Assembly: GCA_910585785.1 (NCBI GenBank)
Contig: CAJUEV010000008.1
Span: forward strand, 682 to 64,681
From: an uncultured Christensenella sp.
Lineage (GTDB): Bacteria > Bacillota > Clostridia > Christensenellales > Borkfalkiaceae
DNA length: 64,000 bases
Direction: 5' to 3'
Under the pieces are notes generated by a model. It was not told where the DNA came from. It did not search any database and saw only the letters and a list, made by a program, of their open reading frames with translations. A program made the position numbers and the translations under genes. Positions 3,695 through 35,820 of this stretch are shown here, one piece after another. Every line of letters begins with the position of its first letter. Within the stretch, counting starts at the first letter, position 1.

Positions 3695-4279
3695 TTAAAC
3701 CCCGCTTAAAAACATTTCCGCCGCCATTATTATAAAAATCACGCCGCCTGCAATTGACGCGCCTCCGACAAAAACATTGCCGAACTTGCGCCCGACAAAG
3801 TGCCCCGCGGCATACGCGGCAAAGGTTATCAGCGAAATAATAGCCGAGCCGATAAGCGCGGTCTGCCAACCGTAGCCCGCTATTGCCAACCCGACCGAAA
3901 GCGCGTCTACCGAAGTTGCCATTGCCTGAACAAGCAACGGCGCGCATTTGCTTTCTTTACTTACAATAAGCGGCTGGGGCTGTTTTTTAAGCCCTTCCGC
4001 AACCATCTTAATACCCAAAAACAGCAACACCGCCAGCGCGGCGACAGCCAGCAACTCCTCAATAACCGCAAACCTTTGCGCAACGGTTTTTACAAGCAGC
4101 CACCCAGCCAGCGGCGCAATAAACTGAAAAACGGCAAACAACGCCGCGTCCGCGCACAACTTACCGCGCTTTATCCGCGTGCCGCTCATTCCGTTTGAAA
4201 GTGAAATCAAAAACGCGTCAACCGCCAATCCCAGACCGAACAGGACGCTGCTCAACAAAAACGTTAAACCGCCAGCCAT
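3695..4279 (-). CDS. mntP: Manganese efflux pump MntP family
   Basis: Hydrophobic protein of about 194 aa. LGLAVDAFLISLSNGM and ATSVDALSVGLA are the duplicated MntP-type motifs. The start is set at MAGGLTF (ATG 4279), preceded by GGAGGAAGCG. Confidence 0.8.
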   Translation of the reverse strand: MAGGLTFLLSSVLFGLGLAVDAFLISLSNGMSGTRIKRGKLCADAALFAVFQFIAPLAGWLLVKTVAQRFAVIEELLAVAALAVLLFLGIKMVAEGLKKQPQPLIVSKESKCAPLLVQAMATSVDALSVGLAIAGYGWQTALIGSAIISLITFAAYAAGHFVGRKFGNVFVGGASIAGGVIFIIMAAEMFLSGV

Positions 4280-4656
4280 CGCTTCCTCCAAAGTAACTTT
4301 GACGGCGCAAGAAGGCGCGCCGCTTTTGCTTCGGCAAAAATAATTCAATCTGTGTATTATATGAAGTTTGCGGCAAAATAGGTTACACCAAATTTGCCCC
4401 TTTACGCTTAAAAATTGAAAAGTTTTATTTAAGTAATAAAAACTTCGGTTTTGAAAGGTACTATTTTCAACCAGCGAAAAACCTTTTATAAAAGCAATTT
4501 AAACGTTATCCCCCATAATATGCGCCGTTTTAGCGCATTTTTAAACAAATTTAATCACCCAACGCAAAACAAACGCGTAAAGACTTTTTCAATTACGCAA
4601 AAAACGCTTGTAATTTAATTGCCCGCGTGATATACTGCGATTAACGAGGTAAAACA

Positions 4657-33560: not shown

Positions 33561-33867
33561 ATTATCCAAACCCCTTTGTGATTATATGTCTTTTATGAAT
33601 AAATTTAGGCGGTATTATTCAGTATGAATACATTAATACATTTTTTTGAAAAATACTGTTGCTTTTTGTTGTCGATTTTTTGTTGTATTTTGTTGGTTTT
33701 TGTTGAAATTTGGCGTATTTTGACGTATTTTGTCGACGGCATAAATATTTTTGTCCGCAATTTGCGATTAATTTAACCGCACGTTTTATCCGTTTTATAA
33801 AATAAACTCCCGCAGCGCAAAGCCGCGGGAGCAACGATTATCAACAAATAACGTCGATTTATTATAT

Positions 33868-35541
33868 TTACGAATAAGATTTTATTGTTTTTGCAACGTT
33901 TATATAGTGGTCGGCTACACGCTCGGCATTTGAAGAAAGGGACAAATACTGCGTGCCCACCTCCGGCGTGCATAAACCGCCGCTTACGCGCTGAATGTGG
34001 TTTTCCGTCATCAGGTTTGTAAGTTCGTCCACCTTTTCCTCTATCGCGTACGCCTCTTTAAGCGCCTTCTTGTCCGTATCGGTATATGCTTTTACCGTTT
34101 TTTCAAACAGCGCAGCAATCAGGTTTTTAAGTTGAGTAATTTCCTCCACGGCTTCGGCGGAAAATTTTTCGTTGGCGTCCCTAAGTTTATCGGCGTACTC
34201 CACTATGTTTTCGGCATAGTCGCCCACGCGCTCCAAATCGGTAATGGTGCGAAACGCCGTCGAAAGGTAAAGTCTGTCCTTTTCGTCCAAATCCGCCTTC
34301 ATAAGAGCGGCTATAAACTTTGCCAATTCTTTATTTAAATAGTCAAGTTTTGTTTCGTTTGCGCGGAACTCCGCCTCCTTAGCGTAGTCCAGAGTGCACG
34401 CAATGCCACAGGCAATTTCAAAATTTTGCATAGCCGTGTGCGCCATACCCAAAATTTCTCTTTTGGTTTGCTGCACAGCCACGGGCGGAGTTTTAAGCAT
34501 ATGTTCTTCCACAAAGTCGAAGTGCGGTCCGGCGCCCTCCTTTGCGGAAGTCTTTTTGTCGGGAACGATTTTAGTAACAAATTTAACAAGCAGCCCCGTA
34601 AGCGGCAACACTATGATAACTGTTATAAGGTTGAACACCGTATGGAACATAGAAAGCTGCAACTGCGGCGCGTGTGGAAACATTTTTGAAAAGATAAATC
34701 CGTAATCCACCCCGCCTAACTGCATAAACAGCCCTATAAGCATAAACACCGCCACGCCGCTTACGTTGAAAATAAGATGGATAAGCGCAGTGCGTTTTGC
34801 GTTTTTGGTGCTTGTAAGCCCTGCAATCATCGCCGTTATGCACGTGCCTATGTTGGAACCCATAGTTATATAAATTCCCTGATTTAACGAGATTAGCCCC
34901 GTAACTACCATAGTTATAGCCATTGACGTCATTACCGACGAACTTTGCACAACCGCCGTAAAAATTGCGCCAATTAAAACAAGCAAAAACGGATTTGAAA
35001 ACTTTGCTAAAAAATTTTCAACCGAATCAAGTTCGGAAAAGTATTTCATAGCGCCGCTCATCATCGAAAGCCCTGCAAACAGCATTCCGAAGCCCGCCAA
35101 AATTCCGCCGACCTTGCGCACCTTGTCCTTTTTGGCAAACGCCAGAATAAACGCGCCGATACCCGCGAACGACGCGAATATTACCGACGAGGATACCGAA
35201 TTTTCGCCGAACATACCCAAGGCGACAAGCTGACCCGTTATGGTCGTGCCTATGTTCGCGCCGAAAATTACCGTTGACGCCTGCGCCAAAGTCATAATTC
35301 CCGCGTTTACAAAGCCGATAACCATAACCGTAGTTGCGCTTGAACTTTGTATGGCGGCAGTCGCCGCCGCGCCCACGCCCACGCCAACAAGTTTGCTTTT
35401 TGACGTCTTTGCAAAAAGCGCCTTCAACTTTCCGCTGCCCAACGCTTCAAGGTTGGCGCTCATCATACTGCAAGCAATTAAAAATATTCCCACGCCCGCA
35501 ACCAGCGAAAGTACCGAAGTAGCAATTTGTACTCCGTCCAT
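33868..35541 (-). CDS. Na/Pi-cotransporter family protein with C-terminal PhoU-like domains
   Basis: AIQSSSATTVMVIGFVNAG...FGANIGTTITG, repeated as VVQSSSVMTSM...GSNIGTCITA. C-terminal LERVGDYAENI / AERVADHYINV PhoU repeats. Confidence 0.85.
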   Translation of the reverse strand: MDGVQIATSVLSLVAGVGIFLIACSMMSANLEALGSGKLKALFAKTSKSKLVGVGVGAAATAAIQSSSATTVMVIGFVNAGIMTLAQASTVIFGANIGTTITGQLVALGMFGENSVSSSVIFASFAGIGAFILAFAKKDKVRKVGGILAGFGMLFAGLSMMSGAMKYFSELDSVENFLAKFSNPFLLVLIGAIFTAVVQSSSVMTSMAITMVVTGLISLNQGIYITMGSNIGTCITAMIAGLTSTKNAKRTALIHLIFNVSGVAVFMLIGLFMQLGGVDYGFIFSKMFPHAPQLQLSMFHTVFNLITVIIVLPLTGLLVKFVTKIVPDKKTSAKEGAGPHFDFVEEHMLKTPPVAVQQTKREILGMAHTAMQNFEIACGIACTLDYAKEAEFRANETKLDYLNKELAKFIAALMKADLDEKDRLYLSTAFRTITDLERVGDYAENIVEYADKLRDANEKFSAEAVEEITQLKNLIAALFEKTVKAYTDTDKKALKEAYAIEEKVDELTNLMTENHIQRVSGGLCTPEVGTQYLSLSSNAERVADHYINVAKTIKSYS

Positions 35542-35629
35542 AATATTGTTTTCTCCTTTAAGTTTTAACTTATATTAAAAACGCAAACAAAGTTTTACGG
35601 CTTATTTATTGACGTAAACGCCCCGTTAT

Positions 35630-35770
35630 AAAATAAAAAGACTCCCACCGAACAAAAAATAAAAAATTCGGTAAAAGTCTCGAAATTTAAGCGTTACCGG
35701 ACGCCTTTCGGCGACGTACTGACGGTTAGCGCACGTTTATTTAAACGCTTTCTACTCCCCTTTAACAAGG
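35630..35770 (-). promoter_or_regulatory. yybP-ykoY-type (Mn2+) riboswitch with terminator expression platform
   Basis: Minus strand reads UUAAAGGGGAGUAG (GGGGAGTAG = 35752-35760), then CGUCAGUACGU-CGCC-GAAA-GGCG-UCCGG, then UUCGAGACUUUUACC. The terminator is GACUUUUACCGAA (35667-35679) paired with UUCGGUGGGAGUC (35640-35652), plus a U-run. Its 5' arm overlaps the P1 3' strand. Confidence 0.7.
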
Positions 35771-35790
35771 CGTATTCACTTTGTAATTAA

Positions 35791-35820
35791 AGTATACAGT
35801 ACGCAAAGTCCGCTTGTCAA
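35791..35820 (-). promoter_or_regulatory. Promoter driving the riboswitch/Na-Pi transporter transcript
   Basis: Minus strand reads TTGACA (35815-35820), 18-bp spacer ending in TG, TATACT (35791-35796). Confidence 0.65.

Follow-up and report, generated by a model that had tools for sequence, protein, structure and literature searches.

Why is a gene for a phosphate transporter preceded by what looks like a manganese riboswitch, and does it belong to a metal regulon at all? The question is raised by a stretch of 64 000 nucleotides (nt) from an uncultured Christensenella sp. (contig CAJUEV010000008.1, positions 682 to 64 681), hereafter the window, in which a gene for a Na/Pi-cotransporter fused to PhoU domains is read from the minus strand behind a leader resembling the RNAs of the yybP-ykoY class. 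A preliminary description of the window had taken this leader for a manganese-dependent switch in front of an unusual target. Having analyzed the leader, its homologs and the genes that follow them, we conclude, with a probability of about 0.6, that it belongs to the yybP-ykoY (manganese) riboswitches of the three-way-junction form and switches transcription ON, with Mn2+ as the most likely ligand.

Architecture of the leader

All sequence hallmarks of the yybP-ykoY aptamer are present within positions 35631-35770 of the minus strand (Table 1). With helices denoted by P and loops by L, they follow one another in the order P1, L1, P1.2, P2, P3.1, L3, P3.2, UUAAA, GAGA and the 3′ strand of P1; the GAGAC at 35681-35677 comprises the 3′ side of L1 together with the start of the P1 3′ strand. 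A search of the window for the composite pattern GGGAGTAG-N20-50-CGTCA-N20-50-RAGAC gave a single match, and 100 shuffles gave none. The promoter, the hallmark motif of the class, the arm resembling stem-GAAA-stem-CCGG, the distal motif and the pairing with UAAAGG that closes P1 had all been pointed out previously, and we recovered every one of them; TATAAT-like boxes stand 5′ of L1 in homologous leaders too.

The parallel drawn with the textbook aptamer holds for the class and for the metal pocket. It does not extend to helix P4 of the textbook four-way aptamer, which is not present in the leader; its place is taken by the junction strand UUAAA, a feature that the preliminary description had overlooked. 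The metal-coordinating C and A of L3 are C40 and A41 in Lactococcus lactis and C49 and A50 in Streptococcus pneumoniae, and in the class a C-G pair in P3.1 just above L3 receives a cross-helix A-minor contact from L1.

Table 1. Features of the leader and of the associated genes (window positions unless a contig is given; descending ranges follow the 5′ to 3′ direction of the minus strand)
Feature	Position	Strand	Evidence or remark
Sigma-70-type promoter: TTGACA (35820-35815), 18-nt spacer, TATACT (35796-35791)	35791..35820	-	11/12 consensus matches
P1 (P1.1 switch helix), 5′ strand UAAAGG	35759..35764	-	Pairs with CUUUUA 35672-35677
AAAGGGGAGUAG motif	35763-35752	-	Sequence match
GGGGAGUAG, conserved 5′ side of L1	35760-35752	-	Sequence match
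L1 5′ side GGAGUAG, metal-pocket loop	35752..35758	-	Invariant across homologs
P1.2, 5′ strand GAAA	35752-35749	-	Directly 5′ of P2
P2 hairpin GCGUUU-AAAU-AAACGU	35733..35748	-	Covariation
P3 arm (P3.1, L3, P3.2)	35691..35732	-	Covariation
Outer P3.1	GCG 35732-35730, CGC 35693-35691	-	The two strands pair
CCGUCAGUAC, GUCGCC-GAAA-GGCGUC and CGG in succession	35725-35697	-	Sequence
Inner P3.1	CCG 35725-35723, CGG 35699-35697	-	The two strands pair
L3 UCAGUAC	35722-35716	-	Class likeness; putative metal-contacting C35721 and A35720
P3.2 hairpin	35715-35700	-	
UUAAA junction strand (UNAAA motif)	35686..35690	-	In place of helix P4
P1.2, 3′ strand UUUC	35685-35682	-	
CGAGACUUUUACC motif	35682-35670	-	Sequence
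L1 3′ side GAGA	35681-35678	-	
P1, 3′ strand CUUUUA	35677-35672	-	
Intrinsic terminator	35631..35680	-	14-16 bp stem; -19.7 kcal/mol; 7 U in 8
Terminator 5′ arm AGACUUUUACCGAA	35680-35667	-	
Terminator 3′ arm UUCGGUGGGAGUCU	35652-35639	-	
Terminator U-tract UUUUUAUUU	35638-35631	-	
Ribosome binding site GGAG	35556-35553	-	ATG at 35541
Na/Pi-cotransporter fused to PhoU domains, 557 amino acids	33868..35541	-	Pfam Na_Pi_cotrans, E 8e-55; PhoU, E 1e-18
Terminator closing the transporter gene	33806..33832	-	11-bp stem, 8 G-C pairs, then T-run
Second Na_Pi_cotrans + PhoU paralog (L142)	C17:13214-14969		Without leader
Single CaCA gene of the window genome (L146)	C4:92620-93675		Without leader (R1 model, see text)

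Terminator and switching logic

That the 3′ strand of P1 overlaps the 5′ arm of an intrinsic terminator had been proposed before and is confirmed here: the arm includes the AGA of the L1 3′ side (35680-35678) as well as the P1 3′ strand, and the closed aptamer and the terminator are mutually exclusive. All 48 of the 48 leaders preserve the overlap: in each, a hairpin with a stem of 10-19 bp and an energy of -13 to -26 kcal/mol begins in the leading nucleotides of RAGAC, and six or more of the 8 nt behind it are U. For the window leader we calculated -32.1 kcal/mol in the terminator conformation versus -17.6 kcal/mol for the P1-closed aptamer, and unconstrained folding of the complete leader yields the terminator. 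As the terminator is far more stable and is also chosen by the unconstrained fold, termination should be the default state, and read-through should require that P1 is held. The ON logic of the yybP-ykoY family applies to the window leader; of the manganese-dependent ON switch proposed earlier, this logic, the L1/L3 pocket and the P1/terminator switch have been borne out, while Mn2+ itself is the ligand that we infer.

The switch would operate as follows. During transcription the weak, A-U-rich P1 would be the first to form. The aptamer would then consist of two legs, one made of P1, L1, P1.2 and P2 and the other of P3.1, L3 and P3.2, with UUAAA replacing P4. Binding of a divalent cation (Mn2+ being the likeliest) in the pocket that L1 and L3 line with phosphates would dock the legs and hold P1; GAGACUUUUA would thereby be kept out of the terminator stem, and the polymerase could continue into the Na/Pi-PhoU gene. 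With no metal bound, the far more stable terminator would form and transcription would end ~95 nt upstream of the start codon.

Conservation and covariation

Homologous leaders were detected by blastn in four relatives, one of them from another family. A covariance model built on five leaders (R1) had matches in 24 genomes of the genus and 26 of the order, out of 151 searched in each case; this genome-wide search scored 26 candidates per genome, and a no-match in it is unreliable. We also scanned one genome from each of 185 579 species with a pattern in which the letters of L1, L3 and RAGAC were fixed. The 47 loci obtained come nearly all from Christensenellales-type isolates and metagenome-assembled genomes (MAGs), with carriers including Christensenellaceae, Borkfalkiaceae, Pumilibacter muris and Anaerocaecibacter muris; beyond this type there were one Erysipelotrichaceae MAG and one Anaeroplasmataceae MAG. 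Overall, the leader was found in about 50 Christensenellales genomes.

The two-legged fold, P1.1-L1-P1.2-P2 beside P3.1-L3-P3.2, was tested on 50 sequences. In their alignment, which was fitted to the model and favours the structure somewhat, 97.9% of the cells pair, in comparison with 26-46% for slid partners, and double changes occur at 14 of 26 pairs; the observed values were reached by 0 of 500 shuffles. Double changes were seen in all eight pairs of the outer P3.1 and P3.2 (helices 4 and 6) and in four of the five pairs of P2 (helix 3; 97.5% of cells paired), and compensatory changes in two of the six pairs of P1 (helix 1; 96.9% paired), the outer two. With both controls far lower, the fold is supported by covariation. 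RNAalifold run on the five leaders had given another outer pairing, since the outer helices are invariant in that small set, and it was replaced by the explicit structure tested on the 50 sequences.

The letters of the pocket are conserved as well. The 5′ side of L1, GGGGAGUAG, was already invariant in the five leaders of the blastn set, which was assembled with no pattern, the AGA was invariant in the same five leaders and is also present in R1 matches that had not been selected by pattern, and the C-A of L3 is kept in every homolog.

The regulated genes

The assignment of the window gene to the Na/Pi-cotransporters with PhoU domains is the same in Pfam and in NCBIfam (Na_Pi_symport and PhoU), and the gene makes a single-gene unit, as a terminator follows its end. 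Is this target exceptional among the homologous leaders? At the 47 scanned loci the first gene codes for a CaCA exchanger (Na_Ca_ex) in 28 cases, for a Na/Pi-PhoU transporter in 16 and for a P-type ATPase in two, with one gene unassigned. No fewer than nine loci with CaCA in first place have the Na/Pi gene next, separated by 9-51 nt, and so form a leader-CaCA-Na/Pi operon; four genomes of the genus show this operon as well, and two genomes have two leaders, one for the CaCA gene and one for the Na/Pi gene. Both arrangements occur in cultured carriers: the leader stands directly before Na/Pi in Pumilibacter muris CLA-AA-M08 (L103) and before CaCA and then Na/Pi in Anaerocaecibacter muris CLA-AA-M11 (L139). 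Counting direct control and control via the CaCA operon together, the Na/Pi-PhoU transporter stands under the leader in 26 of 48 loci. The Na/Pi gene is no lone oddity; it is part of a conserved regulon shared with the CaCA exchanger.

At one locus (L095, CAMUAL010000007.1) we observed a 25-codon open reading frame, MALNIFLLIVGMSLLVKGAD-IIIRN*, located ~50-130 nt past the aptamer and directly before the Na/Pi gene. Its first 20 codons are those that begin the CaCA gene and its last five those that end it. This is an in-frame deletion, by which a leader-CaCA-Na/Pi operon was turned into a leader-Na/Pi arrangement of the window type.

In the literature, the yybP-ykoY regulon of RegPrecise (Sun et al. 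2013) includes the Ca2+/Na+ antiporter COG0530, MntP (COG1971), UPF0016 (COG2119) and the P-type ATPase atcL (PMC3766115). No Na/Pi symporter is named in this regulon, in which four Clostridium locus tags are unresolved. We found no paper pairing yybP-ykoY with PhoU or with a phosphate cotransporter, though the original gene-context tables (Dambach 2015) lay outside this comparison and a prior mention is possible; a review states that phosphate transporters are not a common target of any riboswitch class (PMC9971707). CaCA cargo is already known for the class (COG0530), while Na/Pi-PhoU cargo was found in no searched paper, and to that extent the transporter was rightly called an unusual member of the regulon.

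We read the regulon as a module coupled to sodium, through which divalent cation in excess would be removed or buffered along with phosphate, a direction of transport and a physiological purpose that we infer. Cross-talk between phosphate and manganese, as suggested in the preliminary description, is conceivable. The regulon offers a testable link of divalent-cation stress to phosphate handling in poorly studied gut Clostridia, and the riboswitch gives a functional handle on one particular Na/Pi-PhoU paralog: the window genome has two of them (39% identity), with the leader only at the paralog in the window. Of the 151 genomes of the genus, 146 have the second paralog and ~28 an ortholog of the riboswitch-linked one (65-77% identity).

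Weighing the assignment

A number of observations weigh against a manganese riboswitch of the yybP-ykoY class, and they are brought together in this section and at the start of the discussion of the ligand below. To begin with the structure, the changes in P1.2 are confined to one strand. The inner CCG/CGG of P3.1 (helix 5) is 100% paired, never varies and has no double changes, and with it the candidate C-G receptor pair above L3 (CCG/CGG) pairs in all cells and, being invariant, gives no covariation signal. The invariance of L1, L3 and RAGAC is due in part to the scan pattern, which required those letters. The isolated aptamer produced no thermodynamic signal (z = +0.31), and its minimum free energy fold misses the junction; a weak folding signal is usual where metal-mediated tertiary contacts hold the fold.

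The score of the Rfam family of the class is low. RF00080 aligns with the window leader over its full length and places L1 and L3 correctly, yet with 12.4 bits versus a cut-off of 45. The preliminary description had regarded a score under the gathering threshold as grounds for rejection, and formally the score is under it. We therefore note what the same model does elsewhere: a match above the cut-off was found in 0 of 151 genomes of the class Clostridia, where sub-threshold matches of 18-31 bits precede genes for MntP, UPF0016 and P-type ATPases, and the genome of L. lactis, the source of the crystallised aptamer, was matched only at E <= 10. The Rfam 15 model has 177 positions, does not model the 3′ strand of P1, and has a consensus with an A-first L3 (ACAUACU) and a long P4. 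Because it misses leaders of textbook cargo across the 151 Clostridia genomes, the low score carries little weight; after this calibration it was uninformative and was dropped as a test of the assignment. Annotation pipelines may be blind to yybP-ykoY leaders of Clostridia, given that RF00080 found none above the cut-off in these genomes.

The best match to the leader among Rfam families was SSRC10 (RF02617), with 21.3 bits for the window leader and 30.3 bits for a relative (L043), the cut-off being 56. In Streptococcus pyogenes, SSRC10 was mapped as a terminated transcript that lies immediately ahead of the gene of a 'putative calcium transporter' and runs in the same direction (PMC3675131), and on account of this neighbour we regard it as a streptococcal leader of the mgtA type. 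Membership in another RNA family had been named as a further ground for rejection; the other family turns out to be itself an mgtA-type three-way manganese riboswitch leader, and the class assignment holds. By its score, the window leader is a relative of SSRC10 that has the same architecture and lies outside that narrow sequence family.

The history of SSRC10 also bears on a different explanation, namely that the leader senses no ligand and is an attenuator controlled by a protein or a small RNA, or else that the terminated leader of ~145 nt acts as a small RNA itself, with the yybP-like motifs as relics. The original description of SSRC10 was that of a small, stable RNA on Northern blots (PMC3675131), and the class of the window leader is assigned from sequence. 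Relics, however, would decay, whereas in our set the nucleotides of the pocket are conserved, the helices are maintained by covarying changes and the overlap of P1 with the terminator persists in every leader, as expected of a riboswitch that works. We consider a leader devoid of sensing function scarcely probable.

A further point against the assignment comes from the orthologs of the transporter, whose leaders the preliminary description had proposed to compare. Of the ~28, eight have the leader directly and four via the CaCA operon; ~15 have no leader within 1.6 kb upstream (the upstream regions of 16 leaderless orthologs were searched with R1, filters off). Seven of the leaderless orthologs (L149, L151, L152, L153, L154, L159 and L160, in genomes G146, G078, G121, G139, G131, G017 and G155) directly follow a response-regulator/histidine-kinase pair. 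The core of the kinase is most like PnpS and PhoR, at scores below curated cut-offs, and its sensor domain is sCache-like, a weak match below the Pfam cut-off. Judging from this gene order, a PhoU-fused transporter beside a Pho-like kinase may form a phosphate-signalling unit. Since leaderless orthologs follow the Pho-like pair, the transporter looks like a true component of the phosphate system, which different species have placed either under a Pho-like two-component system or under a metal riboswitch.

The mntP gene of the window (3695-4279, minus strand; MAGGLTFLL...DAFLISLSNG) has no L1 or L3 motif upstream to position 4656, and R1 scores there at most 12 bits, in agreement with the earlier remark that it shows no such leader. 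With mntP behind an ordinary leader, it is not the classic Mn exporter that is riboswitch-controlled in this genome but the Na/Pi transporter, a circumstance unfavourable to Mn2+ as the specific ligand.

Ligand and cargo

By analogy with the Mn-responsive members, whose pocket letters are the same, Mn2+ is probably the ligand. Two more facts have to be added to the unfavourable side: the mgtA aptamer of S. pneumoniae, the closest validated relative, binds Ca2+ tighter than Mn2+ in vitro (PMC6649816), and the MntP and UPF0016 leaders of Clostridia carry the other, A-first type of L3. The two types correspond to the 'alx-like' group UCAUUAC and the family-wide ACAUACU, both of which are Mn-responsive in Escherichia coli (PMC12153347); the window L3, UCAGUAC, falls in the U-first, alx-like group. 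In samples that are ascertainment-biased by the search models and patterns, and in which regex typing mis-binned two loci (L080 and L069), an A-first, ACAUACU-like L3 was found in 11 of 11 MntP leaders and 4 of 4 UPF0016 leaders, and a U-first, UCAWUAC-like L3 in 13 of 13 OAD_beta leaders, 8 of 8 SPFH leaders and most CaCA and Na/Pi leaders. P-type ATPase leaders are of both types, and one genome (G315) has one leader of each (L090, L191).

Two of these cargoes deserve separate mention. OAD_beta (PF03977), the beta subunit of a Na+-pumping decarboxylase, follows three-way yybP-like leaders with a U-first L3 (L063, L065, L077, L078, L166-L168, L170, L177, L179, L182, L184, L188) and was the commonest cargo of the class sample (9 of 29); we found no paper on an association of yybP-like leaders with OAD_beta. 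Genes for SPFH/Band 7 flotillin-like membrane proteins stand behind leaders of a sister subtype, GGGAGUAAUUU ... AAAAAAUGAGAC, which likewise lacks P4 (L047-L054 and L057; genus g1). One of these leaders, L057, has a P4-like hairpin and precedes a gene for a Band_7 + Flot protein.

Could the trigger be calcium? The same RNA class with the same terminator mechanism might respond to Ca2+, or to Ca2+ and Mn2+ alike, and serve a calcium/phosphate homeostasis module. In such a module, CaCA would export Ca2+ on the sodium gradient and Na/Pi-PhoU would adjust phosphate, avoiding calcium phosphate. CaCA (Na_Ca_ex) is the commonest cargo of the scanned loci, though CaCA-family proteins can also carry Mn2+. 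The absence of riboswitch control from mntP in the window genome would fit, as would the occurrence of U-first leaders before CaCA, OAD_beta and SPFH genes and of A-first leaders before MntP and UPF0016 genes, if one disregards that the latter comparison is biased by sequence collection. The streptococcal evidence cuts both ways: the relative precedes a 'putative calcium transporter' and its aptamer prefers Ca2+, as said above, but in S. pneumoniae Ca2+ is by far the poorer activator of read-through, and induction in vivo is stronger with Mn2+ (PMC6649816; PMC11672702). Reviews anticipate yybP variants with other divalent specificities (PMC7266159, PMC5473149). Still, the pocket residues are unchanged from those of Mn-responsive members, and E. 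coli alx, which has the same L3 type, responds to Mn2+. On this balance a calcium trigger is less likely than Mn2+, which we retain, but it is a serious rival.

The OAD_beta leaders raise the question of sodium. All three characteristic cargoes of U-first leaders, the Na/Pi cotransporter, the Na/Ca exchanger and the decarboxylase beta subunit, are sodium-coupled; OAD_beta is Pfam-confirmed, and oxaloacetate decarboxylase is also controlled by the Na+-I riboswitch (PMC9337991). An aptamer that has drifted to another ligand of the sodium cycle, e.g. Na+ or another cation, is nevertheless highly improbable. The window leader retains the L1/L3 pocket without change, a tight cage of phosphates of the kind that suits divalent ions, a drift of this kind has no experimental precedent, and a divalent signal explains sodium-coupled cargo equally well, as the exchanger consumes the sodium gradient built by the decarboxylase.

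One could speculate further that the U-first three-way leaders of Christensenellales and other Clostridia form a separate subclass sensing Ca2+ or another non-Mn cation. Such a subclass would switch on a sodium-coupled module consisting of CaCA, Na/Pi-PhoU, the decarboxylase beta subunit and SPFH proteins. We think this unlikely. If true, it would represent the first riboswitch to respond to calcium and the first riboswitch subtype with a phosphate transporter as regular cargo. In any event, the cargo set has a bearing on a question already raised in the field, namely whether metals besides Mn2+ are sensed by some of the yybP variants (PMC7266159, PMC5473149).

Comparison with known riboswitches

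The reading preferred here, a manganese-responsive ON switch, is best judged against the S. pneumoniae mgtA riboswitch for Mn2+/Ca2+ (Martin et al. 2019), in which a three-way junction has the invariant UNAAA instead of P4 and a terminator follows (PMC6649816). The window leader has the same junction, with UNAAA in the form UUAAA, and the same L1, GGGAGUAG, whose 5′ side is the hallmark of the yybP-ykoY class; in common with mgtA it also has an AGA that never varies, located 3′ in L1, and an L3 of the same type (UCAAUAC or UCAGUAC) with the invariant C-A. In mgtA a C-G receptor pair stands above L3 (PMC6649816), for which the inner CCG/CGG is the candidate in the window leader. The overlap of the P1 3′ strand with an intrinsic terminator and the ON logic are shared too. 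The two differ in cargo, a PII-type ATPase behind mgtA and Na/Pi-PhoU or a CaCA exchanger behind leaders of the window type, and in what is available on them: mgtA comes from Streptococcus and has a measured ligand, whereas the leader from Christensenellales is known from its sequence.

The Mn2+ riboswitches with crystal structures, those of L. lactis yoaB and of Xanthomonas oryzae, have a four-way junction with P4 stacked under P3, where the window leader has a strand of 5 nt. The E. coli alx riboswitch likewise has a three-way junction and a U-first L3 of the UCAUUAC group and responds to Mn2+; it differs in that the helix it lacks is P2 and not P4, and in that it acts translationally, integrates pH and controls a TerC-family exporter (PMC12153347). 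The missing P4 is not new, since S. pneumoniae mgtA has the same form and the junction of E. coli alx is also three-way. Compared with these systems, the leader of the window is a genuine riboswitch of the yybP-ykoY class, of the known three-way-junction type, with an unusual and conserved cargo.

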